Shown: positions 577-17,990, counted from the first letter of the stretch. The stretch: DNA of 44,830 bases from Candidatus Dojkabacteria bacterium (GCA_028696515.1 JAQVGX010000002.1:1-44830); one strand, 5' to 3'. Made by a program: numbers and translations. The notes: generated by a model not told the origin, from the sequence alone.

Positions 577-648
577 TTGCGGGGATCGGATTCGAACCGA
601 TGACCTCCAGGTTATGAGCCTAGCGAGCTACCACTGCTCCACCCCGCG
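577..648 (-). tRNA. Initiator tRNA-fMet (anticodon CAT)
   Basis: Minus strand: CGCGGGG-TG-GAGC-AGTGGTA-GCTC-G-CTAGG-CTCATAA-CCTGG-AGGTC-ATCGG-TTCGAAT-CCGAT-CCCCGCA-A. The C1xA72 mismatch and the CGCGGGGTGGAGCAG start closely match bacterial initiator tRNA. Confidence 0.9.
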
Positions 649-1280: not shown

Positions 1281-2165
1281 ATGAATTTATCAGATGCACA
1301 AAATGCTTTTATAAGCTATCTCAAAGATCAGAAAAGATCGGAATCTACAATTACAGCATATTCTAAAGACATACAACAACTTTCAGATTTTATTGGGTCA
1401 ATAGAAAATATCGAAGATGTTGATCTTATCACATCAGAACACCTAAACAACTTTGTCGCTGCCATCAAGTCCGATAAGAAGTGTAATTACACACTAAAAA
1501 CTGTTTCAAGAAAGATAAACAGCATGAAGACTTTTTTCAAATTTCTATTTGCCACACAGAAAACAAAGACTGATCCAGCCTTGTCTGTCGGTCACCCCAA
1601 ATACAAAACCTTACCTCCCAGAGTACTAACAAGACTAGAATACAGAGCACTTCGTGATGTTGCAAGAACAAATGTACGACTCTATACAATTGTTGAAATT
1701 TTGCTTCAAACCGGAATTCGTATAGGCGAATTGGCCAGACTAACTCTAGATGACCTGAAAATTGATGACAACAAGAAGTTCTTAAATATCGAAGCCTATG
1801 GCAGCAATGAAAAAAGAACAGTTGAGATAAACGAAATAGCACTGGAAGCAATAAAAAATTATCTTCAAATCAGGCCACAAACTAAAGCTAAGGTTGATTC
1901 ATTATTTGTCACAAAAACCGGAAATGCTTTGCTGGTAAGAAATATCAGAACAAGTATTTCCCGAGCTTTCGCAAAGGCTGGTATAAAATCAGCAACAGTA
2001 AATGACATTAGAAATACCTTCATTGTTCATCAGCTTAAGAATGGGATGACAGTTGAAACTATAGGAGAAGTAGTCGGACATAAAAGATTAACAAGTACAA
2101 AAAAATATCTGCAATTTATAACAGAAAAACCCAAGAGGAAGTCAACTAAAATTGTTCCCCTTTAG
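1281..2165 (+). CDS. Tyrosine recombinase, XerC/XerD-like
   Basis: N-terminal SAM-like core-binding domain (AFISYLKDQKRSESTITAYSKDIQQL). Box I is TGIRIGELARLTLDDL. Box II is NDIRNTFIVHQLKNGMTVETIGEVVGHKRLTSTKKY, with the Arg, the His/Trp position and the Tyr nucleophile in place. The HxxR His is replaced by Asn. Confidence 0.85.
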   Translation: MNLSDAQNAFISYLKDQKRSESTITAYSKDIQQLSDFIGSIENIEDVDLITSEHLNNFVAAIKSDKKCNYTLKTVSRKINSMKTFFKFLFATQKTKTDPALSVGHPKYKTLPPRVLTRLEYRALRDVARTNVRLYTIVEILLQTGIRIGELARLTLDDLKIDDNKKFLNIEAYGSNEKRTVEINEIALEAIKNYLQIRPQTKAKVDSLFVTKTGNALLVRNIRTSISRAFAKAGIKSATVNDIRNTFIVHQLKNGMTVETIGEVVGHKRLTSTKKYLQFITEKPKRKSTKIVPL

Positions 2166-2230: not shown

Positions 2231-2307
2231 GGGCTAGTAGCTCAGTTGGTAAGAGCGCGGTTCTTATAAAGCCGAGGTCGGTGGTTCGATTCCACCCTAG
2301 CCCACCA
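2231..2307 (+). tRNA. tRNA-Ile (anticodon TAT), CCA encoded
   Basis: GGGCTAG-TA-GCTC-AGTTGGTAA-GAGC-G-CGGTT-CTTATAA-AGCCG-AGGTC-GGTGG-TTCGATT-CCACC-CTAGCCC-A-CCA. The body closely resembles bacterial tRNA-Ile(GAT) (GGGC..TAGCTCAG..GAGCGC..GGTCGGTGGTTC..GCCCACCA). The 7-nt anticodon loop reads C-T-TAT-A-A. Confidence 0.85.
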
Positions 2308-3076: not shown

Positions 3077-5545
3077 TTATCTCATCTTGGGTCCGGCAGG
3101 GTTAAAAGCAGGAGGGGGAGGGAATCCACCTCCAAAGCCGCTCATTCCCGGTGTCTTCGCATTATATTCCTCACCTAGCTCTGCTCTCTGAGCTATTTCG
3201 GTTTCTACTATACCGACGTCTCTTCCATATTTCAGCCTTGAAAGCTCCTTTACCGTCTGTGCAACTTCAAAATCAGCCTTTGGAAGTCCAAATGGCGCAT
3301 TCTTTAGATGAGTGTATAATGAGAAAGGTGGAGGATATTCTCCATCAACCAGCAACTTCACATACGCATTTACAGCTTCTAAATTTATAAGATCATTCTG
3401 ATCAAATATTGGAGAAAATTCGTTCTGAAGATATTGAGAATCATTTACACCCACCTTAAAGCTTATAATTGTACCAACGTTACCGAAAACAGCATCTCTA
3501 ATTCTCTCATCTATCTGGGAAATATACTGATTACCAACAATCAGATTCAGCCTGTACTTTCTTGCCTCCGACAAGATCTGTGAAAAGTCATCTGTTGCGA
3601 AGTTCTGGAACTCATCAACATATAGATAGAAATCACGTCTTTGTTCTTCCGGCATATCCGCCCTGCTCATAGCGGCAGACAGAATTTTAGGAACAAGCAA
3701 AAGACCTAGAAACTGAGAGTTCTCCTCCCCAACAATACCTTTGGAAAGATTGACTATCAAAATCTTGCCCTCATCCATTATCTTACGAACATTGAAGCTG
3801 GATTCACTTTGACCTATGATATTTCGCATAAGTTTGTTAGTTACAAAACGATCAAATTTCGATACTATATATCCCAGAACCTCACTTTTATGGAAATCGC
3901 TTGTTTGAGCGATCTCATCAGTCCAGTACCTCTTTACAATATCATCCTTAACCATTGGCAGTTTTCTCTTAACAAATTGAGGATCAGTTAAGATTCTCAT
4001 CACTTCTATCAAGGTATTACCTTTCTCTGACATAGTTGTCAACATAGCATTTCTAACTGCTCTTTCAAATCTTGGACCTACTATACCCTGCCTATTCGGA
4101 TCGAACATTTTATACATAAGCCCGATAAATGAGTTCACTATTCTGTGCTTATCCTGTTCATCAAAGAAGTCGGTTATGTTAAATCCGATAGGCCTTTCAG
4201 TGTCGCCTGGGTTAAAGTAGATAACATCCTCTGAACGCTCCGGGGGAATTCTTTCTATCAACCACTCGGCAGGATCGCCATGAGGATCCAGAAAGGCTAT
4301 TCCCTTGCCGTTCATAATATCCTGAAGCGCCATACTCTGAAGCAAGTATGATTTTCCCATACCAGTTTTCCCAACAACATACATATGCTTTCTTCTGTCA
4401 TCTTCTTTTATGCACACATCACGTGAAATTCCTCTGAAAATAGACTGACCCAACCACAAGCCTTTCGTAGGGACCTCTTGAGAGGCCGGGGCTCGTTTTG
4501 AGAGCAACCAGTGTATATGCGGAGTCTGGATATTTTTATTAGGGAAGTGATAAACTGTTGCCAATTCTTCAGTATTTAGTATGTTTTCTCCCTTGGGTAT
4601 CCTGTATATAAAGTTTCTAACAAACTGCTTACCTTTCCCCTTACCGGCACTTTTTTTGACAAGAGAGTTACCATGCTGACTTTTAAGAGGTTCAAGTGCA
4701 GCAACAACATTCATCACATGCCTATTTGCAGAATCCTGACTTCTGCCGACAGCTACAATTCTAATATCCGTGAAAAAACCTACCTTGGAACATTTTTTCT
4801 CAACTGCACCTACAATATCTTCAGGAACTGGAGATTTATTTTCCCCATCAGAAGACTGTTTTTTAAGCCCATTTACAAAATTCTTACCTGTTGTCCTCCA
4901 TTTATTCCCTGCTGGAGATATGATTACCTGTATGGCTATTCCCTCTCCTTCTATCATTTTACTAACCGAGTTTGTAATAGAAGAAATCAGATCTACTGAT
5001 AGTTCCTCATATGTTCGGAGTGGTTTGTATTTTTCCGAGTCTTGGGTCAAGGTTGCGTGTGCCACCTTACCAGTCTCCTCGAATATATTGTATTCTTCAC
5101 TATCCCTGATATCAGCTGTTGGATAAGAGGAATGAATCTGCTTTTCGAGCATAGCCCGGAGATCTTCTGGAACACAAACATAGAAACGGATTGTTTCTGG
5201 GAATGCAACCACTTCAAAGCTGATAAAATCTGACACATTGAAATATTTCTTCAGCCCCTTACCTCCTTTTGACAGCCCATACAAAGAGGCAAATAACTGA
5301 TCCATGGCATTGATCTCTACCTCATTGTTATGCGGAACTCTAATTTCAAGCAAAACCATTTTCACGGATCGTTTTTCATATGCACGGTCACGCATTTTTT
5401 TCAAGAATTTGATGGCGAACCAAGCACCAATGGCAGATGAGACCACAATCAATGCGGATACGAGAAATAAAAGCAAAAGACCCGTACTGCCCTCCCCAGC
5501 TGAGGAGGAACCGTTTACACTTTGAGCATATACTTCTTGAATCAT
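3077..5545 (-). CDS. VirD4/TraG/TraD-type (type IV coupling protein-like) ATPase with an unassigned ~340-aa N-terminal domain
   Basis: 822 aa with an N-terminal TM helix (LLLLFLVSALIVVSSAIGAWFAIKFL). Walker A is HMYVVGKTGMGKSY at about residue 390, followed by IAFLDPHGD. Walker B and the TraG-D_C-like block read FYLYVDEFQNFATDDFSQILSEARKYRLNLIVGNQYISQI..FGNVGTIISFKVG. The C-tail is Gly/Pro-rich. Confidence 0.75.
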   Translation of the reverse strand: MIQEVYAQSVNGSSSAGEGSTGLLLLFLVSALIVVSSAIGAWFAIKFLKKMRDRAYEKRSVKMVLLEIRVPHNNEVEINAMDQLFASLYGLSKGGKGLKKYFNVSDFISFEVVAFPETIRFYVCVPEDLRAMLEKQIHSSYPTADIRDSEEYNIFEETGKVAHATLTQDSEKYKPLRTYEELSVDLISSITNSVSKMIEGEGIAIQVIISPAGNKWRTTGKNFVNGLKKQSSDGENKSPVPEDIVGAVEKKCSKVGFFTDIRIVAVGRSQDSANRHVMNVVAALEPLKSQHGNSLVKKSAGKGKGKQFVRNFIYRIPKGENILNTEELATVYHFPNKNIQTPHIHWLLSKRAPASQEVPTKGLWLGQSIFRGISRDVCIKEDDRRKHMYVVGKTGMGKSYLLQSMALQDIMNGKGIAFLDPHGDPAEWLIERIPPERSEDVIYFNPGDTERPIGFNITDFFDEQDKHRIVNSFIGLMYKMFDPNRQGIVGPRFERAVRNAMLTTMSEKGNTLIEVMRILTDPQFVKRKLPMVKDDIVKRYWTDEIAQTSDFHKSEVLGYIVSKFDRFVTNKLMRNIIGQSESSFNVRKIMDEGKILIVNLSKGIVGEENSQFLGLLLVPKILSAAMSRADMPEEQRRDFYLYVDEFQNFATDDFSQILSEARKYRLNLIVGNQYISQIDERIRDAVFGNVGTIISFKVGVNDSQYLQNEFSPIFDQNDLINLEAVNAYVKLLVDGEYPPPFSLYTHLKNAPFGLPKADFEVAQTVKELSRLKYGRDVGIVETEIAQRAELGEEYNAKTPGMSGFGGGFPPPPAFNPAGPKMR

Positions 5546-6207: not shown

Positions 6208-6684
6208 CTAGAAACTTACCCGTCCTGAGAGCTCAGTCTCCAACTGTCTCTTGAGATCTTTCTCTTTTAACTTAGATCTTTTGTCAATTTTTCTCCGCCC
6301 TTTCCCTGTACCAATTCTGACCTTTATCATTTTACCCGCAGGATATATTTCCAACGGAATTATTGACATATTCTTTGCATCCTGAGCTATCAACAACTCC
6401 TTTAACTCCTTTTTATTCATGAGTAACTTTCTTTCTCGTCGAGGATTATATTCTTTTACAAAAGCATGGCCATATAAAGGAATGTACATATTTATCAGCC
6501 AAGCCTCGAAATTCTTTATCCGTATAAAACTATCTTTTAAATTGGCGCTGCCCTGACGGATAGATTTCACCTCGTACCCCTTTAGCAGAATACCTGCTGT
6601 ATACTTTTTACCAATCTCGTAATCAAAAAAAGCTTTTTTATTTCGTGCATATGTCTGTTTACTCGTATTGTCCGGCTTTTTCAT
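6208..6684 (-). CDS. smpB: SsrA-binding protein SmpB
   Basis: ARNKKAFFDYEI...GILLKGYEVKSIRQGSANLKDSFIRI...EAWLINMYIPLY...YNPRRERKLLMNKKEL is the canonical SmpB signature, with a basic C-tail. The gene ends in TAG. Confidence 0.92.
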   Translation of the reverse strand: MKKPDNTSKQTYARNKKAFFDYEIGKKYTAGILLKGYEVKSIRQGSANLKDSFIRIKNFEAWLINMYIPLYGHAFVKEYNPRRERKLLMNKKELKELLIAQDAKNMSIIPLEIYPAGKMIKVRIGTGKGRRKIDKRSKLKEKDLKRQLETELSGRVSF

Positions 6685-8914
6685 CTACTTTAGCAAGGTC
6701 TATCTTATAAATATTTCCGTCATCCAAAACAAAGAGCCTTCTATTTGTACTGTCGACAACTATATCTTGAATATTCTCAAAACCTTTTACTCCTCTAAAA
6801 ACTATTTGAGCAATGAATTTCCCCTGAGTTGGAGTAAGTGTGGCACCTTTGCTTAGAACCACAACTCTCTTATTGCCCGGGTCAGCTACAAAAACAAGGT
6901 TTTCATCAAGCTCGATACAACTTGGATTCTGTATCTCCCTGTCTAATCCCACTAATGTATAGGAATCTACTTTATCAACAGAGTATCGGAATATTCCCTG
7001 GCTGGGTGTCGAAAAATAGATATTGCCATCAATTTCCATATCATTAGCATCAGCAAGTTTCGAACTCGACCAACGTAGTACAGGAAAAGAATAGCCCGAA
7101 GGATACTTTGATATTTTCTGAACATCTTGTGCCTGGTTTCTTAATAGATAAATGTATTCATTGCCATCCTTATCACTATAAGTATCCATCTCGCTTACAT
7201 CCCCAACACTTGTTGATGATAAACCTGCAATACTTTCTGCTGTCCGAGACATAATATCAATTTTTACAATACCAAGATCACTATCATAAACCAGCAAATC
7301 ATTCTCCCTGTTAGGGGCAATCCATTTAGGAGTAATAAGAATTTCATCACCGATAAAGGTGGTCACATCCCCGCCGTCTACTCCGACTGAATACACAGCA
7401 GAATTGTCCGGATCGGTCACATAGAGAGTTTCGTTGACCAAGGTAATATCACTTGTTATTGCGCCCTCAACATAGCCCGATACTGATGTTATCAAGGCAG
7501 ACTCATCAACCGGTATAGCCCTTGTAACATCATCAAGTATTCCTATTCCTTCATCTTTCTTTACATTAATTTCATCGGTAAGTACACCATACTCCAGAGC
7601 CGTATCTAGCTTATAAAGCGCATCATCTATGACAACAACTGCCTCAGAAATATTACCTGCTTGCCCGATTGTCCTTCCATTCTCAAACTGTTCGTCTACT
7701 TCAGCTAGAATTGCAGCTACGTTTTCCTTCTGTTCCTTTGTTTCTGATCCTTTCTTTATCGCCCTTATACTAAAAAATAGAACTAAAACTCCAAGAAAGA
7801 TCAATATGACAATTCCCCTAACCGCAGGCTTCGGTCCTGCACCCCGTATAAAAATCCCCTTTCTCCCCATACCCATCAGGCCTTCCCAGACATTCTTCCT
7901 GAGAAACTGGAAAATTTTAACAGCATATTCCCTTATCTTTGACCAGATTACTTGGTATGTTTTTTTGTCTTTTAATTTCTCCTTCAGTTTTTCACCGATT
8001 TCCTTGATTTTGCCTTGAGAACCTGTTGTGCTTTTTTGATTATGATCAATTGATTTTTGGATGTCTTTTGGATTTTTTTCACCAGAACTAATCATGTCAT
8101 CTGGAGTGACGTTTGCTTTTTCCTCTTTTTCGCTCTTATCCGGAACTATCTTCTCGGAAGTAAAATCAGAAAGACCCTGCTCATCCGGCTCCTCCATCTC
8201 TTCTCGACTCTCTATTTTCCGGGAACCTTCTTCCTTTTGCAGATTCAATACCTCCTCGTCTTTCTGTAATTTCTCTCCTAAACGTATAGTTAATACTCCC
8301 CAGAAAGGATTATCTGCTAGTTTTTCGATATCATCCATCGAACCATTTTTTGCTACCAGTTTCAGATCCGACTCCGAAAGACTAGATAACGCATCCGGAG
8401 ATATCAAGCTGAACTGATCATCCCACTCATATTTACCGCTGCCTGTTTTGATCAAGTTCCTCCCTGACAAGTCTTTCAATCCTTCTGTCAGATTTACAAG
8501 TGTTCGATCACGCATCAGCATTATCCCCCCCTCCCCCAGAACAGCCATATAAACAAAGCCCCCTTTTATTACTAAGGTTTCTACACTTAAATCTATACCC
8601 TCAGAGGCTGCTATATTTTCTCTCTGAAGTAGAAATTCAAGCTTACGGGCAACTAATAGAATGGCCTTTGACAATCTTTCAACAGGATTTTCAATATTGA
8701 GAGAATAATATTCCTCTTGTAAAGTGTCACAAAGAAGTCCGCCTGCTACTTCACTGTCAAATTCTTCTGGAGCTTTGATAGTAAATAGTGCAAAAAGTCT
8801 ACCAAATTCACTTACACCCGCACTTGATTCCGGCTTTACAGACACACCTGACCACCCACCCTTTTCAGGCCTACCTACAAGAAAGATTGACTCAATATCT
8901 CGATTTCCTTCCAT
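6659..8914 (-). CDS. Large membrane protein: N-terminal globular domain, K/E-rich disordered linker, one TM helix, C-terminal NHL-like beta-propeller repeats
   Basis: 751 aa with a TM helix at VRGIVILIFLGVLVLFFSI. The C-terminal half carries repeated blade-like motifs (LYVTDPDNSAVYSV, LLVYDSDLGIVKID, VFVADPGNKRVVVL, LFVLDDGNIYKI). The 3' end overlaps the smpB start by 26 nt. Confidence 0.6.
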   Translation of the reverse strand: MEGNRDIESIFLVGRPEKGGWSGVSVKPESSAGVSEFGRLFALFTIKAPEEFDSEVAGGLLCDTLQEEYYSLNIENPVERLSKAILLVARKLEFLLQRENIAASEGIDLSVETLVIKGGFVYMAVLGEGGIMLMRDRTLVNLTEGLKDLSGRNLIKTGSGKYEWDDQFSLISPDALSSLSESDLKLVAKNGSMDDIEKLADNPFWGVLTIRLGEKLQKDEEVLNLQKEEGSRKIESREEMEEPDEQGLSDFTSEKIVPDKSEKEEKANVTPDDMISSGEKNPKDIQKSIDHNQKSTTGSQGKIKEIGEKLKEKLKDKKTYQVIWSKIREYAVKIFQFLRKNVWEGLMGMGRKGIFIRGAGPKPAVRGIVILIFLGVLVLFFSIRAIKKGSETKEQKENVAAILAEVDEQFENGRTIGQAGNISEAVVVIDDALYKLDTALEYGVLTDEINVKKDEGIGILDDVTRAIPVDESALITSVSGYVEGAITSDITLVNETLYVTDPDNSAVYSVGVDGGDVTTFIGDEILITPKWIAPNRENDLLVYDSDLGIVKIDIMSRTAESIAGLSSTSVGDVSEMDTYSDKDGNEYIYLLRNQAQDVQKISKYPSGYSFPVLRWSSSKLADANDMEIDGNIYFSTPSQGIFRYSVDKVDSYTLVGLDREIQNPSCIELDENLVFVADPGNKRVVVLSKGATLTPTQGKFIAQIVFRGVKGFENIQDIVVDSTNRRLFVLDDGNIYKIDLAKVDEKAGQYE

Positions 8915-9090
8915 AATTATTAATTCAATTAACCCCTTAACAATAAAATGTTGTTATTCGTAATATTTTCCTTCTGATTTTCTCAACGAAACATTAAACT
9001 TAAAAGCACTGTTGGCTTTCATTACGCTAAAACTAGGCCAGTTCCATATGATATAAGGAAAAATATGTATACGCCTGATACTACATATCT

Positions 9091-9303
9091 TCACTTTACT
9101 ATCACAACTGCCATCAGTACAAGAAGAACAAGGAATATGTGAACAAGACTGAGGCAGTTTAAACATCCCTTCATCTTAGTTTTGATTGCTTTGTTCATCA
9201 GAAAAACTTGCCGTGCAATCAAAACCGACAAAAGGAAATATATAAATAGCAACACTAAAAATAGTGTTTTTGTTATCAATACGATCAAATTCTCACTCTC
9301 CAT
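9091..9303 (-). CDS. Small two-TM membrane protein (hypothetical)
   Basis: 70-aa ORF with two hydrophobic helices separated by the basic loop NKAIKTKMKG, 16 nt downstream of the preceding gene. Short, so coding status is uncertain. Confidence 0.35.
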   Translation of the reverse strand: MESENLIVLITKTLFLVLLFIYFLLSVLIARQVFLMNKAIKTKMKGCLNCLSLVHIFLVLLVLMAVVIVK

Positions 9304-9319
9304 ATAGACTAATGCAAAG

Positions 9320-9934
9320 CTAAACTGGATGCTTGACCATGAGATTTCTTAAATCCATGATTTTATCCCTCACCCATGAAGGTTTCGGTACGGATAAAAA
9401 ATCAAATTCTCTCCTTTCACCGGCTGTCTGAATATAGACATCCCCGTAGTTGAAAAACATTGGTAAAAAACCAATACTTTCCTGAGTGGCATCAACAATG
9501 TTGTCAAGACTGGCCTCGCTTATTTTATGATATGCAAAGGCGCTGAAATCAAAATCAAGTACCCTTTCACTGGTGATTACATATAAATTGAAATACCAAT
9601 CAAGAAACTTCATAAAACTTGATGTGAAGACCAGAAGATACCAGAGCATGATAGCCACAACTACATAACTATCCCTGAAAAATGGAATCGTTTCAAAGTC
9701 GATTTGCATAAGGCTGAGCACGTACAAAATAATCGGCGGGATAATAGAAAAAAATACTCCGGTTATAATCCAGCTAAGATTGGTAGCGATATGCCCCCTC
9801 AGCATAATGAAAACTCTTTCGTTAGGATTCTGAGTTTCAAACTCCATCCTTTCAGGCATGATGATAACAGAACTGATAGTCCCGTCACGTCTCTCTGGTA
9901 GTATCTCATTGAGTCTTTCTTGAGTATGAGTCAT
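9320..9934 (-). CDS. Membrane protein with a bacterial PH (bPH_2/YdbT-like) domain
   Basis: Two or three TM helices, then YVITSERVLDFDFSAF..HKISEASLDNIVDATQESIGFL..FNYGDVYIQTAGERREFDFLSVPKPSWVRDKI, the typical membrane-flanked bPH pattern. Confidence 0.6.
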   Translation of the reverse strand: MTHTQERLNEILPERRDGTISSVIIMPERMEFETQNPNERVFIMLRGHIATNLSWIITGVFFSIIPPIILYVLSLMQIDFETIPFFRDSYVVVAIMLWYLLVFTSSFMKFLDWYFNLYVITSERVLDFDFSAFAYHKISEASLDNIVDATQESIGFLPMFFNYGDVYIQTAGERREFDFLSVPKPSWVRDKIMDLRNLMVKHPV

Positions 9935-9950
9935 AATTCATCACTAATAA

Positions 9951-11720
9951 TTATTCGGCCTTTTTGAAGTAGAATGTTAAACTAAATACCGGATCCACTT
10001 CACCTGAAGGTTTTTTGTTACCAACCCAAAAATTAAAAATTATCTTAAAAAATTCCCCATTTATATCTGATGTCCCTTTACTCCCAACAATTCTCACCTT
10101 TGATGCCCTACCCGAAACATCTCGAACAAACTGTATATCCTTAAGAGTTCCAGTCGTACCCAGTAAATTTTTCACATCACTTGAACTTGGGTAGGTGTAC
10201 CCTGCCTTGCTATACCATTCTAACATTGATTGCAGTTCTTTTAAAGAATAACTGTTTGTTCTCCACATCCAGTCCGTATAAGGACCTTTGACTGCAAAGC
10301 TCGAATCATTAACTCCTTGCAGCCAGCTAAAGCCACTTCCGCAGTTACCCGCAAAATCCCAACACCACACTGGATTTCTATGTGTAGCTGTACCCCAGCC
10401 GTTATTATTATCTGAGGAATAATAAGCTTTTATGATGCTTCCTCCTGACTTCAAAACCTTCCCCTTTGTTTCATCAGCAGCCCATTTTTTTGCCGTACCT
10501 CCCTTGTAAACTTGACAACTCGCAGAAGTACAAATCGGGCCCCCATAAGCTAGCGCATAAGAACGAGCTACAATTACCTGGGCTTCAATAGTATTTTCAG
10601 GCCAACAGTCCCATATAGAATTCGGATCGTCCAACCTATACTTATCCGGCCTGGTATTTACCTGAGACTGATTTCCACAAGCCTTATCCGGGATTTCGCC
10701 CAGGCCAGAGACATAAGTTTCAATATTCATAGTTCCATATCCTATGACATCAATATTTCCCGATGCTGTTCCTATAACAGTACCCGGATAGTAAAACTTT
10801 GCAATTTGTGTGCCGCTCATACCGCTTTTTCCTCCTCCATAGGCTCCATATTGGGAAAATCCTAGGCCATGGCCTTGATACAGAGCTCGGCCTCTCCCAT
10901 AAAAATAGTACTCCCCTTTTACTAATGGTTTTGTCCCCCCATTTACATCCCCGATAAGAACAGCCTCTTCTTCCATCATAGCTCGTAAATCAGCATTTAA
11001 TCCCTCAATATCCTGCTGCACGGCTCCCATTTGAGCCCGGATGTTTGACTGTAAACTTGCATTGTAAGAGGCAAGCGAGTTGTAATAAGATACTTCATCG
11101 GTAAGTTCTTGCTTCCTTGTAGCGAGTTTCTTATTTTCATCGCTTAGAGATCCGACCTTCTTTTCAAACTCTAGTTTCTTTTTCTTCAGAGATTCTGCTT
11201 CAATGGCCATCTGGTTTACACCGTCAATGTCAGCATCTAGAAGTGTTTCTCGATATTTATAATCTTTCCAGAAGCCATCGACCTGACCATTCGAAAGAAA
11301 AACATCAACCAGCCCTCGGCGATCATTAATATACACATTGACAAGATTCTCATTCATTTCTCCTTGCTTCTTTTCGATATCAAGCTCCAGAAATTCGAGA
11401 CTTTTTTTGTACTTATCAAGTTTGACCTTGTTTAATTCAAGTTCAGCTTCAACTTTTTTCAACTCTGTTTCAATATTCTCAAGTTGGGATGAAGATGTCC
11501 CCATTTGGGATTCGAAGTACGCAACAAGCTCTTCTGCCTTTGTCAATTCTGATTCTAAATCGTCAAGTTCCTTCTCCTTCTGATCTATTTCCTTTTCAAT
11601 TTCATCCTGAGTTTTTGAGTATACGTAGACAGGAGAACTTAATGCATTTGACAGAAGAAGAAACGCAGTTAAGAAGATAAATGGAAATTTAAATGTTTTT
11701 GACAACTTATAATCTAGCAA
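9951..11720 (-). CDS. Secreted coiled-coil protein fused to a SpoIID/LytB-type domain (cell-wall remodelling)
   Basis: TTG start and a signal/TM segment (FPFIFLTAFLLLSNALS). About 230 aa of heptad-rich coiled coil follow (EKELDDLESELTKAEE..ELELNKVKLDKYKKSLEFLELDIEKKQ). SpoIID-like motifs come next: YVSGLGEIP...WPENTIEAQVIVARSYALAYGG..CTSASCQVYKGG...YYSSDNNNGWG. Confidence 0.7.
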   Translation of the reverse strand: MLDYKLSKTFKFPFIFLTAFLLLSNALSSPVYVYSKTQDEIEKEIDQKEKELDDLESELTKAEELVAYFESQMGTSSSQLENIETELKKVEAELELNKVKLDKYKKSLEFLELDIEKKQGEMNENLVNVYINDRRGLVDVFLSNGQVDGFWKDYKYRETLLDADIDGVNQMAIEAESLKKKKLEFEKKVGSLSDENKKLATRKQELTDEVSYYNSLASYNASLQSNIRAQMGAVQQDIEGLNADLRAMMEEEAVLIGDVNGGTKPLVKGEYYFYGRGRALYQGHGLGFSQYGAYGGGKSGMSGTQIAKFYYPGTVIGTASGNIDVIGYGTMNIETYVSGLGEIPDKACGNQSQVNTRPDKYRLDDPNSIWDCWPENTIEAQVIVARSYALAYGGPICTSASCQVYKGGTAKKWAADETKGKVLKSGGSIIKAYYSSDNNNGWGTATHRNPVWCWDFAGNCGSGFSWLQGVNDSSFAVKGPYTDWMWRTNSYSLKELQSMLEWYSKAGYTYPSSSDVKNLLGTTGTLKDIQFVRDVSGRASKVRIVGSKGTSDINGEFFKIIFNFWVGNKKPSGEVDPVFSLTFYFKKAE

Positions 11721-11813: not shown

Positions 11814-12266
11814 CTACACAGTTCCAGTACAAACATCTGGGAAAAAGAACCTAAATATTGCCATGTTATCGAATTGATCGAAACCAGTAGTGAAACAGCT
11901 CCCTGGGTCTTGGAGTGCCAACAAAATAATCATTACCCGTACAAATATGTATCCACCAAAAACAAGTACAAAAGCTAGTGCAATATTTCCTCCCCGTTTT
12001 TTGAGGCTCGATAGCTTTTGTTCGTCTCCAAACGCCAGCATCCACTGAGCACCGATATAAATTATAGTGAAAATGAAATATGGAATTGATAAAGCCCAGA
12101 GCGCAAGCAAGGCATCAATAAATATTACCTCTGCTTCCTGTAAACGGTAAGGTTCATCTTTAATAGTTCCAGAGGAAGCACTCAAGCTACTTACTTTGGA
12201 TAGTAAAACTATCGGGCCAAGAAGCAGTCCCCTTAGTAAATTCTTTACTTTTACTTTCATTTTCAT
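11814..12266 (-). CDS. VirB2/TrbC-like two-helix pilin-module protein, paralog P6
   Basis: The ORF track starts at a TTG at 12323. The ATG at 12266 gives a cleaner signal peptide (MKMKVKVKNLLRGLLLGPIVLLSKVSSLSASS). The C-terminal module is ...IFTIIYIGAQWMLAFGDEQKLSSLKKRGGNIALAFVLVFGGYIFV, then a 2-Cys tail. Confidence 0.6.
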   Translation of the reverse strand: MKMKVKVKNLLRGLLLGPIVLLSKVSSLSASSGTIKDEPYRLQEAEVIFIDALLALWALSIPYFIFTIIYIGAQWMLAFGDEQKLSSLKKRGGNIALAFVLVFGGYIFVRVMIILLALQDPGSCFTTGFDQFDNMAIFRFFFPDVCTGTV

Positions 12267-12418
12267 ATTCGTAAAACAATAAAATTGTTGAACTAATTTA
12301 ACAATAATTATACCAGAAAACAAGGTTCTAATATAATCGAGTTTACATTTTAGAAGACAATGGAAATTTCAGTTAGACTTTATTATAATCAAAAAAATAA
12401 ACCAATAAAAAGTATACT

Positions 12419-13918
12419 ATGAAAACATTTAAGAAAGTTTATATATTTTTAGATAAGATACCCCTCATTACAACATCTTTAGTAATCCTGATTTTCACTA
12501 TGCTACTGTTTTTGCCGACAGACCCGGATCTATTCTGGCATCTAAAGTATGGCGAACTGACTTTGGATCAAGGACCAATATCACATGACCCTTTTTCATA
12601 TACCTTTTCTGAATTCAGATTTTACGACTATGAATGGCTTGCTCACATTCTAACTATTTTATTATACAGATTTGGTGGATATGTATTACTTTCGATCTTC
12701 TTTGCAGTTATTGTTTTACTCGCTTTCACTCTTTCAGCCAATATCAGCCTTCCACGCAAAGCCCCCCGGAATCTCAGAACTTTGGCTGTGTTTGCAGGAC
12801 TATTTCTAACGATACCGATGACGGGAATACGCTTGCAAATGCTGTCGCTGCTAGGAGTGGTATCAGTATACTTTATATACAACAGATACCTCACTGCTAA
12901 ATCCAAGTTGATTTATCTTATTCCTGTAATATTTGTGCTCTGGGCAAACGTCCATCCAGGATTTCTATCAGGGCTGGCGCTTATCAGTCTACTTACTTTC
13001 TCAGAGTTCATAAAGTTTCTGCTGAGAAGTTTCAACCTTTCCGGAAAATCAGATTCCATTTATGATGATGATTATCCAAGTCTCAAAACACTATTTCTGA
13101 TAACTGTACTTTCTTTTATCTCAACCCTCATCACACCTTTTGGTCACCACATACTCTTCCAATCTTTGAGTTTTTCGGTTGAGCCATATACCGGCAATAT
13201 CATAAACGAGTGGCTTTCTCCTGATTTTAAAGTCACAAGTGGATTCTTCTTTTATTCATTTTCCGGGATAATATTCCTATCATTTTATTTGAGAAAGAAG
13301 ATCAATCTTAACGAAATATTGGTAATCATTTTCTTTGCTATCATGACCATGCAAGGGATAAGAAATCTGCCCTTGTTAGTAGCAGTCGCTCTTCCTTCTA
13401 TCCTGCAAACCCCAGGCTACCAGAAAATCAAGGGTTATTTCAATGATGCCAATCTCCTCCTTCTGGCATCAAAACTATTTCTATTCATTTTAGCTCTTGG
13501 AATATCCATTTTTAACTTCCGTACATATTATAAACTTATAAACGATATCGATCTTGTCTATGAAGCCGCCGATTACCCAAGGGAAGCTGTTGTGTACATG
13601 AAAGAAAACCCAGAAGAGGGCAATATCTTCAACACATTTGGCTGGGGAGGATATCTTATCTGGGAATACCCAGAAAAGAAGCTTTTTATAGACGGCAGAA
13701 TGCCTTCTTGGAGAATGGGAAAAAGATCGATTCTCAAAGAACAGAACGATATCAAAGATCTCAAAATACCAGACTGGAGGGAGAGGCTTTATAGCTATAA
13801 TGTCAAAATTATCTTACTAAGACCTACAGATCCATTGGTCAATGCACTCAGATACGATCCTGATTGGGAAGTTGTACTTGATGAACCTAATTCTGTCCTC
13901 ATTTATAAAAAGATATAG
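12419..13918 (+). CDS. Polytopic membrane protein, GT-C-fold glycosyltransferase-like (tentative)
   Basis: 499 aa with at least 10 hydrophobic helices and an acidic first-loop motif PTDPDLFWHLKYGE, reminiscent of the DxD/DPxF loop-1 motifs of STT3/ArnT-type GT-C enzymes. The soluble C-terminal domain has a WGGYLIW..DGR motif. It is the only plus-strand gene inside the pilin-like locus. Confidence 0.4.
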   Translation: MKTFKKVYIFLDKIPLITTSLVILIFTMLLFLPTDPDLFWHLKYGELTLDQGPISHDPFSYTFSEFRFYDYEWLAHILTILLYRFGGYVLLSIFFAVIVLLAFTLSANISLPRKAPRNLRTLAVFAGLFLTIPMTGIRLQMLSLLGVVSVYFIYNRYLTAKSKLIYLIPVIFVLWANVHPGFLSGLALISLLTFSEFIKFLLRSFNLSGKSDSIYDDDYPSLKTLFLITVLSFISTLITPFGHHILFQSLSFSVEPYTGNIINEWLSPDFKVTSGFFFYSFSGIIFLSFYLRKKINLNEILVIIFFAIMTMQGIRNLPLLVAVALPSILQTPGYQKIKGYFNDANLLLLASKLFLFILALGISIFNFRTYYKLINDIDLVYEAADYPREAVVYMKENPEEGNIFNTFGWGGYLIWEYPEKKLFIDGRMPSWRMGKRSILKEQNDIKDLKIPDWRERLYSYNVKIILLRPTDPLVNALRYDPDWEVVLDEPNSVLIYKKI

Positions 13919-13984
13919 CCTACTTTTACTTCAGATTTCCTATCTTCTTCCAAGTTGAAGATTGATAAATGAGCTCTGCTAAAT

Positions 13985-14037: not shown

Positions 14038-14526
14038 TCAATCTCCCGGATCAACATTGATATTAGCCTCTGGAGCTTTTTCACCTCCAAGTATAAATAT
14101 TATTGCAAATATACCGATAATCGCAAGAATCATAGCAGCAAATCCCATAAGCACAGCTTTGATAGCTCCTTTTGATTCCTCAAGCTTCCCAGACTCTCCC
14201 TGGCTTGTAATGAACTTAATAGCGGCTAATGCTGAATATATGATTGCAGCCAGGAAGACAACAACAAAAACTACTGTCAAAGCAACCCTCACACGCCTAT
14301 TTACAAATTCATTTACATCATTTGCATTTAAACTGTCATCATTTCCTGTAATACTATCAATAATATTTTTGATAAAAGGCGGCAAAACCTCACTTCCACT
14401 GGCACCAGTATTATTAGCTGCTGCATAACTAGGCATCGCCATCCCAAAAAAGAGTGCCCCGCTAACACTCGATACTGTGAACACTTTGGAAGCAACATTC
14501 AATGATAGTTTTTTTAGCTTATTCAT
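14038..14526 (-). CDS. VirB2/TrbC-like pilin-module protein, paralog P1
   Basis: Signal peptide (..FFGMAMPSYAAA), a short ectodomain, then VALTVVFVVVFLAAIIYSALAAIKFITSQGESGKLEESKGAIKAVLMGFAAMILAIIGIFAIIFIL. Confidence 0.65.
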   Translation of the reverse strand: MNKLKKLSLNVASKVFTVSSVSGALFFGMAMPSYAAANNTGASGSEVLPPFIKNIIDSITGNDDSLNANDVNEFVNRRVRVALTVVFVVVFLAAIIYSALAAIKFITSQGESGKLEESKGAIKAVLMGFAAMILAIIGIFAIIFILGGEKAPEANINVDPGD

Positions 14527-14614
14527 AATGCAAAACCTTATAAATTAACTTTGAAATTATATCAAATATATGCCAGATTAGCAAAATAAAAACAAAATTG
14601 CAAGTAAATAATCG

Positions 14615-15199
14615 TCAATTACATACCCAGTCAGCAGGAGTGCATTCCCAATCACATCCTTCTGGAAGAGTGTCTTCATCTATATCACGCTTATGCTCAA
14701 ACAGAGTTTCACCATTACAGACAGCCAGATTTTGGGCCAGAGAAAAAACTGTACCTATCCCCAAGAAGAATGTCACAACGTTAACTAGTATAAACATAAT
14801 AATTGTCGCCGCAAAGCCAATCAATGCATTTTTAAACCACTTACTCGCACTTTGGAGTTTAGTATCACTGCCCTGGCTCCCAACCATCCTTATCGCTCCA
14901 ATAGCAATGGCAAATATAAGTACGATAAAAAGAATTACAAATAAGTTCGAAAGTATAACTGAAAGAATTACCCAAATCGAGGTGTCTCCCTCCCAATAGT
15001 TAAGAGGCTTGAGAATATTTAGCCTTATACTTCCACCGGGGCCAAATATTTCGTCAAACAAATCACCCTCCCCAGGAACCAGGACATCATCATTATTTGC
15101 AGATGCCAATACCCCACCTTCTTGCGAAAAGGGGAAAACAGATATGCCTATAAAGATAACTATAACAGTAACCAATAAACCTATTATAATCCTTTTCAT
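14615..15199 (-). CDS. VirB2/TrbC-like pilin-module protein, paralog P2, with a C-terminal 4-Cys extension
   Basis: Signal/TM segment, ectodomain, then ..LFIVLIFAIAIGAIRMVGSQGSDTKLQSASKWFKNALIGFAATIIMFILV. An extra helix follows, then the tail CNGETLFEHKRDIDEDTLPEGCDWECTPADWVCN. Confidence 0.6.
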   Translation of the reverse strand: MKRIIIGLLVTVIVIFIGISVFPFSQEGGVLASANNDDVLVPGEGDLFDEIFGPGGSIRLNILKPLNYWEGDTSIWVILSVILSNLFVILFIVLIFAIAIGAIRMVGSQGSDTKLQSASKWFKNALIGFAATIIMFILVNVVTFFLGIGTVFSLAQNLAVCNGETLFEHKRDIDEDTLPEGCDWECTPADWVCN

Positions 15200-15213
15200 G
15201 ATAAGAAAGCTAA

Positions 15214-15555
15214 TTAACTAAAAACCTCATCTATAAAACTAAAGTCTGTTATATCTACACCCAAAAGACCTGCTATAACAGCAAAGACCAATATAAACCC
15301 AAATGCTATAAGAACTGCAATTATTCCATCTTTCATGATCTTTTGAGCTTTCTGTAGCTTCTCTTCACTATCACCAGCCGTAATCCATGTATAACCACCA
15401 TAAAAAATTACAACAACTAATCCAACGGCAAGCAAGGAAATAGCAATTAACAAAGCAGTTTTTATGAGCCTCGGGAAGACCGAAGGATCGGTATCTCCGT
15501 GTGATCCTGTAACATTTTCATCTACCCCCAAGATTTCAGTCCATTTCTTAAACAT
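15214..15555 (-). CDS. VirB2/TrbC-like pilin-module protein, paralog P3 (minimal form)
   Basis: 113 aa: ..ALLIAISLLAVGLVVVIFYGGYTWITAGDSEEKLQKAQKIMKDGIIAVLIAFGFILVFAVIAGLLGVDITDFSFIDEVFS. Confidence 0.65.
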   Translation of the reverse strand: MFKKWTEILGVDENVTGSHGDTDPSVFPRLIKTALLIAISLLAVGLVVVIFYGGYTWITAGDSEEKLQKAQKIMKDGIIAVLIAFGFILVFAVIAGLLGVDITDFSFIDEVFS

Positions 15556-15594
15556 TAGTATCTATAGTAATATTTATTATTAAAGTGTCCCAAT

Positions 15595-16095
15595 TTACTC
15601 AACAAGTGCCGTATCAATATCAAGCAAACTGGCAAGTATTCTAACCAAGAGTGGTGCGAGTGCCATTATTGCGAAACCTACTGCGGCACCTATGGCTATT
15701 TTCATACTTTTCCCCTCTTTATCTGGATTTCCTGCTGCAGTCATGCGTACAAACCCAGCGTAAATGACTGTAAAAATGAAGCCAACAACTGACAAGGGCG
15801 TTGTAATACCGCTAGCCTTTGTGATAAGTTCCCCTAAACTAACGAGGGTTGTAGGAATAGGGATAGTAGTCGGTTTACCAGTTGATGAAGGATCCGCACA
15901 ACAACACCAAGTATTACCATCTGGGACTAATGGATCACAATATGCAGTACATACTTTCCCTCCATTTTCACACATATCTTTTGGCAGAAATTGACCGGAA
16001 CAGTCATTACAAGACATTGCTTCTACTTTCGCACTAGGGAGAGAGGTCATAAGCAAAAAGAATAGGGAAATGCATATAAAAATTCTTCTCAACAT
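15595..16095 (-). CDS. VirB2/TrbC-like pilin-module protein, paralog P4, with an N-terminal Cys-rich ectodomain
   Basis: Signal peptide (FICISLFFLLMTSLPSAKVEA), then 8 Cys in about 42 aa (SCNDCSGQFLPKDMCENGGKVCTAYCDPLVPDGNTWCCCADP), then a P/T linker. The module reads ..VVGFIFTVIYAGFVRMTAAGNPDKEGKSMKIAIGAAVGFAIMALAPLLV..LLDIDTALVE. Confidence 0.65.
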   Translation of the reverse strand: MLRRIFICISLFFLLMTSLPSAKVEAMSCNDCSGQFLPKDMCENGGKVCTAYCDPLVPDGNTWCCCADPSSTGKPTTIPIPTTLVSLGELITKASGITTPLSVVGFIFTVIYAGFVRMTAAGNPDKEGKSMKIAIGAAVGFAIMALAPLLVRILASLLDIDTALVE

Positions 16096-16112
16096 AATAA
16101 GGCTTTTAAAAG

Positions 16113-17306
16113 TTATTCAAATATTTTGCCAATACCCAGTATATCAATACCTATAAAATTTAAAAGGATAGGGAGCATTATACCAAAGGCGATGGCAATG
16201 ACAGCACTAGTAACTATCCCTCTCGCCTCCTTCATCTTTTCCGGGTCATCTGTGTTTATCATATAGCCTGCCTGTATAAACCTGACAACCGAGAGACCCG
16301 TAACAATACCTACAAAAACCCTCATTACAGCAACCACAATACCGTTATCACTTGGTGTAATACAGCCGACTTCAGTCCAAAGATTTCCTGTATAAGTTTC
16401 CGAACAATCATCCTCCCCATCATCTCCCGCTGGACAACTACAATCGGGATTCCCGCAAACACAATTGCAGCAATCAGTCAAATTCGAACCTGTCTCATCA
16501 CCGCAGATTTCTTTACAGGATGGATCTTTTGGGGTCTGCGAAACATCTGGATTGCCTACATTCGAACAGTCTGTTCCGACTGGAGGACCATTGATATGAG
16601 ATGTCCACTTCGGATTAGCATGAGCTGGTCCTCCCAATAACATTTCAACTTCAACTGAGTGAGGCCCAGGATCCAGATTTATCGGAATAGTTTCTTGTCC
16701 CGTCCCGAAACCATACCCTGTCCAATATGGATCTCCATTCCCATCTACAGTTAGTGTGTATACAACCTTTTTAAAGACAGTTCCCGACCACCTAAACTCA
16801 ATATTTCCTAGACACCCATTCTTAAGAGTAATTTTACAATCCTCATCAACACTACTCACTGACAAGATATGTGAATAACCGTTTACGTTAGGCCCAAAGG
16901 GAGTACCATTTGTAAGCCAAGTATAACAGTCAGAGTTACCGGTTCTTTTAACAAAGATTTTTCTATCCTCAAAAGCAGGCATTCCCCTCCAGTAACTCGA
17001 CAGATTGTAAGTAACAACATCTGTTTGCGCGGGATCTTCATCAATAAATTTTACAGCTTTTGACCATGCGGAAATTTCACCAAAATACACAAATCCTTCA
17101 ACATTTACTTTATCCCCCCCAGTCCCGATTGTGTTATTCTTTATAGTAAGTATATCGGTTGCTGTATCGTAATCACAATCCCCATCCCTCACTATCGCAG
17201 CCATCGTTTTGTTCAGAGTTCCTAACCCAAATAAAAACATAGCTCCGACAAACACGGATCCCGCTGCAAAAAGTTTGATTTTCCTATACTTATTGTTCTC
17301 TTTCAT
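16113..17306 (-). CDS. VirB2/TrbC-like pilin-module protein, paralog P5, with a large N-terminal ectodomain and a Cys-rich linker
   Basis: 397 aa with a signal/TM segment (LFAAGSVFVGAMFLFGLGTL) and a ~250-aa beta-rich region. Next come 11 Cys in about 70 aa (CSNVGNPDVSQTPKDPSCKEICGDETGSNLTDCCNCVCGNPDCSCPAGDDGEDDCSETYTGNLWTEVGC). The module reads ..VAVMRVFVGIVTGLSVVRFIQAGYMINTDDPEKMKEARGIVTSAVIAIAFGIMLPILLNFIGIDILGIGKIFE. Confidence 0.65.
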   Translation of the reverse strand: MKENNKYRKIKLFAAGSVFVGAMFLFGLGTLNKTMAAIVRDGDCDYDTATDILTIKNNTIGTGGDKVNVEGFVYFGEISAWSKAVKFIDEDPAQTDVVTYNLSSYWRGMPAFEDRKIFVKRTGNSDCYTWLTNGTPFGPNVNGYSHILSVSSVDEDCKITLKNGCLGNIEFRWSGTVFKKVVYTLTVDGNGDPYWTGYGFGTGQETIPINLDPGPHSVEVEMLLGGPAHANPKWTSHINGPPVGTDCSNVGNPDVSQTPKDPSCKEICGDETGSNLTDCCNCVCGNPDCSCPAGDDGEDDCSETYTGNLWTEVGCITPSDNGIVVAVMRVFVGIVTGLSVVRFIQAGYMINTDDPEKMKEARGIVTSAVIAIAFGIMLPILLNFIGIDILGIGKIFE

Positions 17307-17350
17307 AGAAGAAATTTACCATGTAAACTCCTTAACCATAACTATAACGT

Positions 17351-17450
17351 ACCCACCCACGCTCCTCCTCCTCGCCTCTCCCCGTACAATCATATCCGCA
17401 ACTTTATTCTCAACCTCTTTTCGAACTATATAGTGCACATCTCAAGCGCC
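17351..17450 (-). pseudogene. Relic duplicate of the 3' end of the clp-like gene
   Basis: 17383..17417 is identical over 35 nt to 18028..18062 (cgtacaatcatatccgcaactttattctcaacctc). Flanking similarity extends to about 17351..17450 versus 18001..18093. The relic translates to ..VENKVADMIVRGEARRRS.., against VENKVADMIVRGEVRSGG in the live gene, and has a stop and a 2-nt indel upstream. Confidence 0.8.
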
Positions 17451-17484
17451 AATCTTTTTTCTTCAGGATTTAACAACCCTACCT

Positions 17485-17706
17485 TCAAGGCCTCTCTGAA
17501 ACACTTTTCAGGGGAATTACAAGCAATCCCTCCTGAACCTCTAAATATCCCTTCAGACTCTTCCAACAAATTTCCACACAGTAATCAAATCTTTGGATAG
17601 AAGCGTCACGTATAACATCTAAATCATCTTCCTTGCCCAATACTTCTTGAAAAGAAGTTAGGGCTTTTCTGAGCCGAACTAATTGTGCAGTTAGCTTCTC
17701 ATCCAT
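17485..17706 (-). pseudogene. Truncated HepT-like (HI0074/NTase substrate-binding family) toxin gene remnant
   Basis: 73-aa ORF ..RKALTSFQEVL...DVIRDASIQRFDYCVEICWKSLKGYLEVQEG matches the N-terminal half of the family (IqRFEf..E..WK.lK.yL). The expected RxxxH-containing C-half is missing. A frameshifted continuation (VFQRGLEG..) ends at the duplication boundary. Confidence 0.6.
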
Positions 17707-17753
17707 TGCCTAACTATATCTTTAAATATAACACCTTCTTCATGGCTATTTTT

Positions 17754-17963
17754 TTAAACTCCTTGCTCACCTGATTCATCATAACCACATCTGCCCTCAA
17801 ATGGCAAAGTTGAATCTTCAAGGGCTTCTTTCAATGCAGATACTTTATCACAATCTAACATCTTCCCCTTATGGGTTTCCACCCCAATATCAAAATCAGA
17901 ACCTTGCTTTTCAATACCTAGTGCCCTAGACCCATGTAATCCAATACCAGTTTCTTTACTTAA
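17754..17963 (-). pseudogene. Minimal nucleotidyltransferase (MNT-like antitoxin) gene remnant, lacking a start and frameshifted
   Basis: The minus-strand frame gives ..GLHGSRALGIEKQGSDFDIGVETHKGK...LKEALEDSTLPFEGRCGYDE*, carrying the GS-x-RG...SD-x-D NTase signature. A 1-nt shift restores the typical ending ..ADVVMMNQVSKEFKKIAMKKVLYLKI*. No in-frame start codon follows the upstream stop. Confidence 0.6.
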
Positions 17964-17990
17964 TCAAGTTCTCGATTCATTATACCCTCG

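Follow-up and report, generated by a model that had tools for sequence, protein, structure and literature searches.

A VirB2-like pilin array with conserved anchors and variable heads in a bacterium related to Candidatus Dojkabacteria

Why would a bacterium keep side by side several highly divergent genes for pilin-like proteins, some of them extended by large or cysteine-rich regions that bear no resemblance to one another? This question is raised by a DNA stretch of 44,830 nucleotides from Candidatus Dojkabacteria bacterium (GCA_028696515.1 JAQVGX010000002.1:1-44830; the whole stretch is called the window below), in which positions 14,038 to 17,306 hold a tandem array of five genes, designated here by the length of their products as p162, p194, p113, p166 and p397. 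An initial annotation had described them as VirB2/TrbC-like pilin modules carrying alternative surface-displayed heads. Open reading frame (ORF) calling placed all five genes where they had been reported, co-directional on the minus strand, with the lengths (162, 194, 113, 166 and 397 aa) and the gaps of 14-88 nt given there (individually 17, 39, 14 and 88 nt). The five loop strings and three C-terminal strings quoted in the annotation are all present in the translations, and its cysteine (Cys) counts are correct, with 8 in p166 (residues 29-66), 11 in p397 (residues 247-315, with 4 more further upstream) and 4 in p194 (residues 161-193). A two-helix module of ~80 aa, referred to below as the anchor, is common to all five, and the segment between the signal peptide and the anchor is called the head. 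A sixth copy, p169, lies outside the coordinates of the initial annotation and is separated from the other five by a 499-aa gene on the other strand. The copies and the parts of p397 are as follows:

14038-14526, minus strand: p162, 162 aa; signal peptide, short variable N-terminal segment, module and short variable tail; 0 Cys
14615-15199, minus strand: p194, 194 aa; signal peptide, acidic N-terminal segment, module and 4-Cys C-terminal tail (residues 153-194; nt 14618-14743)
15214-15555, minus strand: p113, 113 aa; short acidic N-terminus followed by the module; head-less and without a signal peptide
15595-16095, minus strand: p166, 166 aa; signal peptide, 8-Cys mini-head (residues 27-79; nt 15859-16017) and module (residues 80-166; nt 15598-15858)
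16113-17306, minus strand: p397, 397 aa; signal-peptide-like N-terminus (~1-37), head (~38-261), Cys knot (~262-305) and two-helix module (306-397)
16524-17195, minus strand: head of p397, an orphan ectodomain of ~224 aa
16392-16523, minus strand: Cys knot of p397 (C-x3-C ... CC-x-C-x-C ...), between head and anchor
16116-16391, minus strand: anchor module of p397 (WTEVGCI, helix 1, NTDDPEK loop, helix 2)
11814-12266, minus strand: p169, the sixth copy; signal peptide, module and 2-Cys tail; the start is probably an internal Met, as in the orthologues

Conserved anchors and variable heads

Five genomes were compared: the window, L001, L002, L011/L012 and L013. A ClpB query led to four loci, two of which are close relatives with the same gene order: a metagenome-assembled genome (MAG) classified as 'Patescibacteria group' (L001; 86% ClpB identity) and a Ca. 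Dojkabacteria MAG (L002; 65%). By its sequence relationships the organism is a Patescibacteria bacterium related to Ca. Dojkabacteria. Between the window and L001 the six copies are 66-91% identical, compared with 86% for ClpB, and the alignments indicate that they are old paralogues, each conserved as an orthologue group of its own. The five copies are thus not duplicates in rapid turnover.

Across the five genomes the anchors align without indels (85, 81, 77, 81, 79 and 82 aa, the p397 anchor being the one of 85 aa) and with mean identities of 50-73%; for the p162 module the mean is 71%. This comparison of predicted proteins shows anchors of fixed length that are under strong purifying selection. 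The segments between signal peptide and anchor, in contrast, vary from 6 to 107 aa, contain 0-16 Cys and share 9-38% identity. The variation found in three of these heads is given below:

p166 head: 6-107 aa, with 0, 0, 7, 8 or 16 Cys; in L001 the 8-Cys unit occurs as a tandem duplicate
p113 head: 25-91 aa, with 0 or 7 Cys
p194 head: 45-77 aa, with 0 or 6 Cys; the L002 orthologue adds an N-terminal 6-Cys head

The C-terminal tail of p194 is conserved in the five genomes, with 4-6 Cys. Most members of the p166 family are head-less proteins of 108-120 aa, made up of a signal peptide and an anchor, and Cys-rich inserts of varied sequence are present in a minority.

Eleven p397-type proteins were gathered from the protein database and from metagenome contigs. 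Their anchors are similar in all 55 pairs (57-98% identity), whereas their heads are detectably similar in 4 of 55, one of which is the near-identical pair formed by the window and L001 and the other three of which share 23-26% identity. The Cys knot is semi-conserved in all p397-type proteins (alignment A2). The picture of alternative heads on a common anchor, proposed in the initial annotation, is thus borne out by the five-genome comparison and by the p397-type pairs, and the survey of related genomes that it called for found varying ectodomains, a conserved module and preserved synteny.

The head of p397 in the window is common only to the orthologue in L001/L015 (82-86% identity). An exhaustive phmmer search of this head against 1.84 billion representatives returned its own cluster only, plus one spurious match, and neither Pfam nor the PDB sequences yielded any match. 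The spurious hit, P0079, is an FG-GAP-like repeat protein with a single weak match and was rejected as a relative of the head. An AlphaFold2 (AF2) model of p397, built from an alignment of eight sequences, reached a predicted local distance difference test score (pLDDT) of 40 overall and ~25 in the head; the 'beta-rich' label given earlier to this region could not be verified, and a Foldseek search with the model returned no meaningful match.

The fate of the heads between close strains can be followed in L013 and L014, two contigs from one metagenome, sample 3300057032. DNA identity between the two is 90.3% for the ClpB 3' ends, 94.6% for the p397-type knot plus anchor and 90.1% for the p166-type anchor, in which 95 of 95 residues agree; the p397-type knot is co-inherited with the anchor in both. 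The head-coding DNA of the two genes gave no blastn match between the contigs, and in the p166-type heads only the Cys framework is retained. Synonymous (pS) and non-synonymous (pN) differences, obtained as Nei-Gojobori counts, amount to pS 0.17-0.40 and pN 0.005-0.02 in the anchors and the ClpB flank, and to pS 0.68-0.91 and pN 0.50-0.55 in the heads. Synonymous sites are near or at saturation only in the heads, which makes the head alleles much older than the DNA that flanks them. This points to recombinational replacement: as judged from these counts, recombination has exchanged the head alleles, or balancing selection has maintained them, and they have not simply mutated faster. Between the paralogues of a single genome, the heads of the p113-type and p194-type genes of L002 are alike (z 6.7), a score reached by none of 500 composition-preserving shuffles. 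Our comparisons show gain, loss and duplication of heads, and of some tails too, as well as their transfer from one paralogue to another and their complete replacement between close strains.

Two further observations concern the same pair of contigs. The pS of the p397-type knot plus anchor (0.17; L013 1848-2273 vs L014 2705-3130) lies below the values for ClpB (0.37) and for the p166-type anchor (0.40), a hint that the anchor segment itself was homogenised or transferred recently. The stretch L013:3-1103, considered as a second tandem p397-type gene, was rejected as such, being the 3' end of ClpB.

Homology, family and topology of the module

Mean column identity among the copies of the window is 25% (alignment A1). 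In an all-against-all phmmer comparison the copies form one network, with p162-p194 at E ~1e-8 and the others at 1e-3 to 1e-5. Comparison of the five-genome orthologue alignments with hhalign linked p397 to p166 at a probability of 91%, p166 to p169 at 95-97%, p166 to p113 at 93%, p113 to p194 at 95% and p194 to p162 at 98%. Such links between orthologue-group profiles (91-98%) argue that the likeness of the modules reflects homology, not mere hydrophobic composition, and together with the phmmer network they confirm the common module claimed for the five paralogues. The only invariant residue of the loop is a Lys; the loop motif is conserved around it, which is not what would be expected of the generic two-transmembrane (two-TM) proteins devoid of a conserved loop that had been considered as an alternative.

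The sole family to pass a curated cut-off was T4SS_pilin of type IV secretion systems (T4SS), PF18895, whose gathering cut-off is 26.6 bits and which p166 matched at 33.3 bits. The other five copies scored 7.8-21.8 bits, below the cut-off (p113 21.8, p397 19.4 and p194 17.9 bits; p162 and p169 <10 bits). All 18 p166 homologues carry PF18895, the orthologues P0030 and P0015 match it at 43-45 bits, and the p397 orthologue P0003 has a precomputed match. By profile similarity, the membership of the array module in PF18895 is secure. Weak matches only were obtained with NCBIfam, to the 'pilin-like conjugal transfer protein' of mycoplasma integrative and conjugative elements. The AF2 model of p166 consists of two long helices (H87-119/H124-157; pLDDT ~85), and the anchor of p397 was likewise modelled as a hairpin (H321-350/H355-385; pLDDT ~70). 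When the p166 model was compared with the PDB by Foldseek, the third-ranked structure was 8dfu, a conjugation pilus subunit of Aeropyrum pernix (TM-score 0.69, root mean square deviation 2.6 Å, 72 columns), at an E of 1.7 that is not significant, helical hairpins not being discriminating.

No copy among the six matched the canonical TrbC/VirB2 family, PF04956 (cut-off 27.9 bits), with E values allowed up to 10. A protein found via the module profile of the window, P0077 (E 2e-4), matches both PF18895 (47.9 bits) and PF04956 (28.2 bits) and forms a single marginal bridge between the two; four further homologues match PF04956 at E 5e-4 to 3e-3. The label 'VirB2/TrbC-like pilin module' therefore holds in part: a search against T4SS-pilin models, which the initial annotation had suggested, supports it through PF18895, and no direct match was obtained to PF04956, the family specifically named there, or to a canonical VirB2 profile. 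We conclude that the module works like a VirB2-type hairpin; it can be assigned to PF18895, but not on this evidence to the canonical VirB2 family.

A hydropathy scan found two hydrophobic helices and a short charged loop in all copies, and a hydropathy heuristic detected a positive n-region, a hydrophobic stretch and an Ala-x-Ala-like site at the N-termini of five of the six. The established topology of VirB2 and TraA has the termini outside and the loop inside. A cleaved signal peptide would therefore leave the head and the C-terminal tail outside and the loop inside, and the heuristically detected signal-peptide-like segments of the five copies support the earlier placement of the Cys-rich parts outside the cell. 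Heads and tails are net acidic, the p397 head having 19 K+R and 40 D+E. Extracytoplasmic disulfides are plausible because genomes of the candidate phyla radiation (CPR) are enriched in MdbA-like oxidoreductases and VKOR (bioRxiv 10.1101/335083); no gene for either was found in the window.

Possible functions and related systems

The region encodes a VirB2-like pilin set (PF18895) of six old paralogues, and we consider it probable that these are assembled into a surface fibre with exchanged heads for host contact. Five of the six proteins would be exported by Sec, and the helical hairpin would insert with its short charged loop, including the invariant Lys, in the cytoplasm and with both termini outside, so that heads and tails would be extracellular and probably disulfide-bonded. 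A VirB4-type T4SS machine encoded elsewhere would extract the hairpins and build a pilus-like fibre or surface structure, of which the head-less copies might form the bulk. The head-bearing copies (p397, p166 and p194 with its tail) would be minor or tip subunits, showing small disulfide-stabilised domains to the host cell, and replacement of heads by recombination could adapt the epibiont to other host surfaces or evade something targeting the heads. We infer both the assembly into a pilus and the role in host contact.

Two-domain tip adhesins are known from other pili, such as FimH of chaperone-usher pili, with its lectin and pilin domains, and the large minor pilins of type IV pili. They resemble the present proteins in that a variable binding head is fused to a conserved polymerisation module in a minor subunit, and by this analogy p397 may be a tip subunit; their folds and assembly pathways are unrelated to those considered here. 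More tentatively, the heads could be exchangeable host-specificity cassettes on a conserved T4SS-pilin anchor, with recombination at the junctions swapping old alleles between co-occurring strains and between paralogues and thereby determining the hosts to which a CPR epibiont can attach or from which it can feed, in the way that phages swap receptor-binding tips. We regard this last proposal as possible but doubtful.

A frozen, length-invariant anchor, joined to heads that arise, disappear, become duplicated and give way to old alleles, is a pattern that marks a surface recognition molecule. If this is true, the array provides concrete candidates for host-range determinants in CPR bacteria, the pilin module would be exposed to the outside rather than buried in a channel, and head alleles should track host populations in metagenomes. 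The T4SS and its pilin array are essential in the only genetically tractable Patescibacterium, where their function has been called completely unknown (PMC11665869; PMC12857230); the present findings bear on the role of this essential system and are in that respect of moderate interest.

Several observations weigh against a fibre displaying exchanged heads. The p397 head of the window, compared with that of L001, is under ordinary purifying selection (pN 0.069 vs 0.078 for ClpB), and the turnover of heads is therefore episodic, not continuous. A head of 220 aa on every subunit is hard to pack in a VirB2-type helical fibre; p397 might be only a minor or tip subunit, or might not polymerise. No pilus of such proteins has been observed in any Patescibacterium, and one is treated in the literature as a possibility (PMC12857230). 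VirB4, VirB3, VirB6 and VirB8 were not recognised among the ORFs of the window, and coupling ATPases, according to the literature, are often unlinked and may be exapted; in the published survey a pilin gene lies near virB4 in only 1135 of 1948 assemblies (PMC12102498). Comparison with an alignment of seven annotated VirB2 proteins of the mating-pair-formation type T (MPF_T) from plasmids gave hhalign probabilities of 0.3-4.3%, which is no direct support for a canonical VirB2; a profile search of the PDB sequences found no pilin, only spurious matches to Sec61-gamma transmembrane segments, and Foldseek found no match of the p166 model in the PDB at E 1e-3. The loops are not net positive, and the positive-inside rule alone leaves the topology unfixed. 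Finally, p113 is without a signal peptide. Its ORF cannot be extended upstream, and the L001 orthologue is without one as well, whereas the orthologues in L002 and L013 do have a signal peptide, that of L002 together with a Cys head (6-7 Cys); either the N-terminus of p113 reaches the outside independently of Sec, or the protein serves a different role in this lineage than it once did.

The main rival retains the PF18895 family and dispenses with polymerisation, the hairpin being a permanent membrane anchor or channel subunit and the heads monomeric surface adhesins or receptors. It would suit the bulky p397, since large variable heads are awkward for helical packing, and agrees with the lack of a nearby VirB4 gene in the window and of a pilus seen so far for any Patescibacterial T4SS. 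We nevertheless find it unlikely: most family members, at 108-160 aa, have essentially no ectodomain, as fits fibre subunits and not display anchors; heads of 40-50 aa would presumably not reach past the cell wall; and the anchors are far more conserved and length-invariant than a simple tether needs. That the hairpin, and not the peptide, is the conserved part argues against precursors of secreted Cys-rich peptides (a toxin, bacteriocin or signal), in which the two helices would serve as leader, carrier or immunity element. Cys frameworks conserved amid hypervariable residues do recall conotoxin- and knottin-like peptides, and the head alleles are old and exchanged. However, a Cys-rich part is missing from three of the six copies and from most homologues, the conserved block contains no protease, ABC exporter or modification genes, and the hairpin matches PF18895, which makes such precursors very improbable.

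A disfavoured explanation, which we find scarcely credible, is that the copies are generic two-TM proteins or small transporter subunits of the TctB/DctQ type, whose pilin likeness is mere hydrophobic composition. It draws on the slightly better score of p113 against TctB (24.7 bits) than against T4SS_pilin (21.8 bits), on the weak and mixed matches that are all p162 obtained, and on the automatic transporter names of some homologues. Against this, all transporter matches are below the curated cut-offs (29.1 bits for TctB; DctQ 14.6-17 bits against 28.3), transporter partner genes are missing (no TctA/TctC or DctM/DctP genes were found in the window), the orthologue-group profiles tie every copy to one that passes PF18895, the loop motif is conserved with an invariant Lys, and the structure of the array agrees with that of published pilin arrays.

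The array itself is already known, and the statement in the initial annotation that no described system has this organisation is wrong (PMC12102498, PMC12857230, PMC10633639, bioRxiv 10.1101/258137). From a search of 3,035 genomes of Patescibacteria that used PF18895 and PF04956, Quinonero-Coronel et al. 2025 reported 441 'VirB2 arrays' of 2-11 pilin genes, in tandem or one gene apart, with a mean identity of 25% (PMC12102498); the present array, with five tandem copies, a sixth after one intervening gene and high divergence, fits their definition. Wang et al. 2023 found that the T4SS cluster essential to Southlakia epibionticum contains a series of predicted pilins (PMC10633639), and a 2025 review, which raised a pilus as a possibility, recognised in Southlakia six structurally conserved, sequence-divergent VirB2-like pilins (PMC12857230). 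Saccharibacteria have arrays of 4-6 small signal-peptide proteins resembling VirB2 (bioRxiv 10.1101/258137). These arrays (Southlakia; the 'Sec-secreted array' of TM7x) share with that of the window the PF18895 family, the phylum, some six tandem copies with ~25% identity, the succession of signal peptide and hairpin, a chromosomal location and the lack of a nearby relaxase. The present array differs in that several copies have Cys-rich heads or tails and one an orphan head of ~220 aa, that heads are exchanged while anchors are fixed, and that it does not adjoin virB4 and is followed by a SpoIID-domain gene and, 8.5 kb away, a coupling ATPase. Neither the array papers nor further full-text searches yielded a description of such pilins with Cys-rich or large ectodomains, or of heads being exchanged; as far as could be found, the head-on-anchor modularity with allelic replacement is undescribed.

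Canonical TrbC/VirB2 proteins (PF04956; Agrobacterium VirB2, F TraA, RP4 TrbC) are alike in their signal peptide, two hydrophobic helices, short loop and termini predicted outside, and P0077 is a family member that bridges both Pfam models. They differ in showing no direct profile similarity, in being encoded by one gene next to virB3/virB4, compared with six genes here, and in having no extra ectodomains; the host here is monoderm. Amplified pilin genes in the Trw T4SS of Bartonella (trwL and trwJ copies) and VirB2 paralogues in Anaplasma have been cited as analogues (PMC12102498). They too are VirB2 copies that stand in tandem and have diverged, presumably varying the surface for binding to host cells or for antigenic variation, but there the pilin itself diverges by point changes, whereas in the present array the variation lies in separate N-terminal modules and the pilin core stays fixed.

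Neighbouring genes

The conserved block runs in the order GroES/GroEL, ClpB, p397, p166, p113, p194, p162, 499-aa TM gene, p169, SpoIID coiled-coil protein and bPH_2 protein, and continues with a DUF5657-like small protein, a 751-aa TM/beta-propeller protein, SmpB, a 184-aa protein and a VirD4/TrwB-type coupling ATPase. The L001 contig ends after the bPH_2 gene and L002 was examined up to that gene, and because this coverage stops there, the part from the DUF5657-like gene to the coupling ATPase is seen only in the window, L011/L012 and L013. The block is kept without the 499-aa gene in L013, and without both the 499-aa gene and ClpB in L011/L012; p169 is contiguous with the other five copies in these two, which are more distant relatives. 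An origin of the array in a mobile element is unlikely: GC is even, and synteny of the block with GroEL, ClpB and SmpB persists in divergent genomes; from this even composition and housekeeping-gene setting we regard it as chromosomal core. The neighbours on the SpoIID side are:

3077-5545, minus strand: VirD4/TrwB-type coupling ATPase (T4CP); DUF87, TrwB_AAD_bind and TraG-D_C; NCBIfam TraD and VirD4-like; PDB TrwB at E 7e-7
6659-8914, minus strand: 751-aa protein; a single TM segment, C-terminus NHL/beta-propeller-like
9091-9303, minus strand: 70-aa DUF5657-like two-TM protein
9320-9934, minus strand: bPH_2 membrane protein
9951-11720, minus strand: coiled-coil protein with a SpoIID/LytB domain (PF08486 SpoIID, TIGR02669)
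12419-13918, plus strand: 499-aa polytopic membrane protein that splits the array; encoded in the window, L001 and L002 but missing from L011 and L013

The T4CP is the only recognisable T4SS machinery gene of the window and has the same relative position in L011/L012. The 751-aa TM protein, whose C-terminus is NHL/beta-propeller-like, was considered as a VirB4 or VirB6 and rejected; no informative match was obtained for two other candidates for these roles, the 623-aa and 499-aa proteins.

The SpoIID-domain gene lies directly downstream of the array in all five genomes. SpoIID is a lytic transglycosylase. VirB1 is mostly missing from Patescibacterial T4SS loci (PMC12102498), and the SpoIID-domain protein is a candidate for a cell-wall-remodelling partner that substitutes for VirB1. 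Between this gene and SmpB stands a conserved trio, all on the minus strand (6659-9934), made up of the bPH_2, DUF5657-like and 751-aa genes and syntenic with the array in L011 and L013.

No match to the 499-aa protein was found in Pfam, NCBIfam or the PDB; its first loop contains a 'DPDLFWHLKYGE' motif, which we take to be reminiscent of GT-C glycosyltransferases. The stretch with its gene is flanked by an imperfect 23-nt direct repeat (78% identity) at 12246-12268 and 13921-13943, which could be an insertion scar or chance.

At the other end of the array, the 684-nt gap between ClpB and p397 (17307-17990) holds a decayed toxin-antitoxin pair of the MNT/HEPN type, in which a nucleotidyltransferase motif (GS..DxD) and, at 17485-17706, a 73-aa NTase_sub_bind-like ORF can be recognised, followed by a duplicated ClpB 3' end (VENKVADMIVRGE...). 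In L014 this site contains NTP_transf_2 and NTase_sub_bind genes that are intact, together with the same ClpB-tail duplicate, and L001 and L013 have neither. A 10-codon upstream ORF that overlaps the p397 start and is preceded by a Shine-Dalgarno sequence was rejected, as it derives from the duplicated ClpB tail and is not conserved in L001 or L013. A promoter and terminator scan performed no better than on shuffled sequence.

Farther from the array, two tRNA-Met genes (372-446 and 577-648, minus strand) and a tRNA-Ile gene with anticodon TAT (2231-2307, plus strand) flank an integrase of the XerC/XerD type (1281-2165, plus strand), upstream of and adjoining the T4CP region. A PIN-domain gene (34517-34930, plus strand) follows a 97-aa ORF (34222-34515) that ends one base before it, and the two look like a toxin-antitoxin pair.

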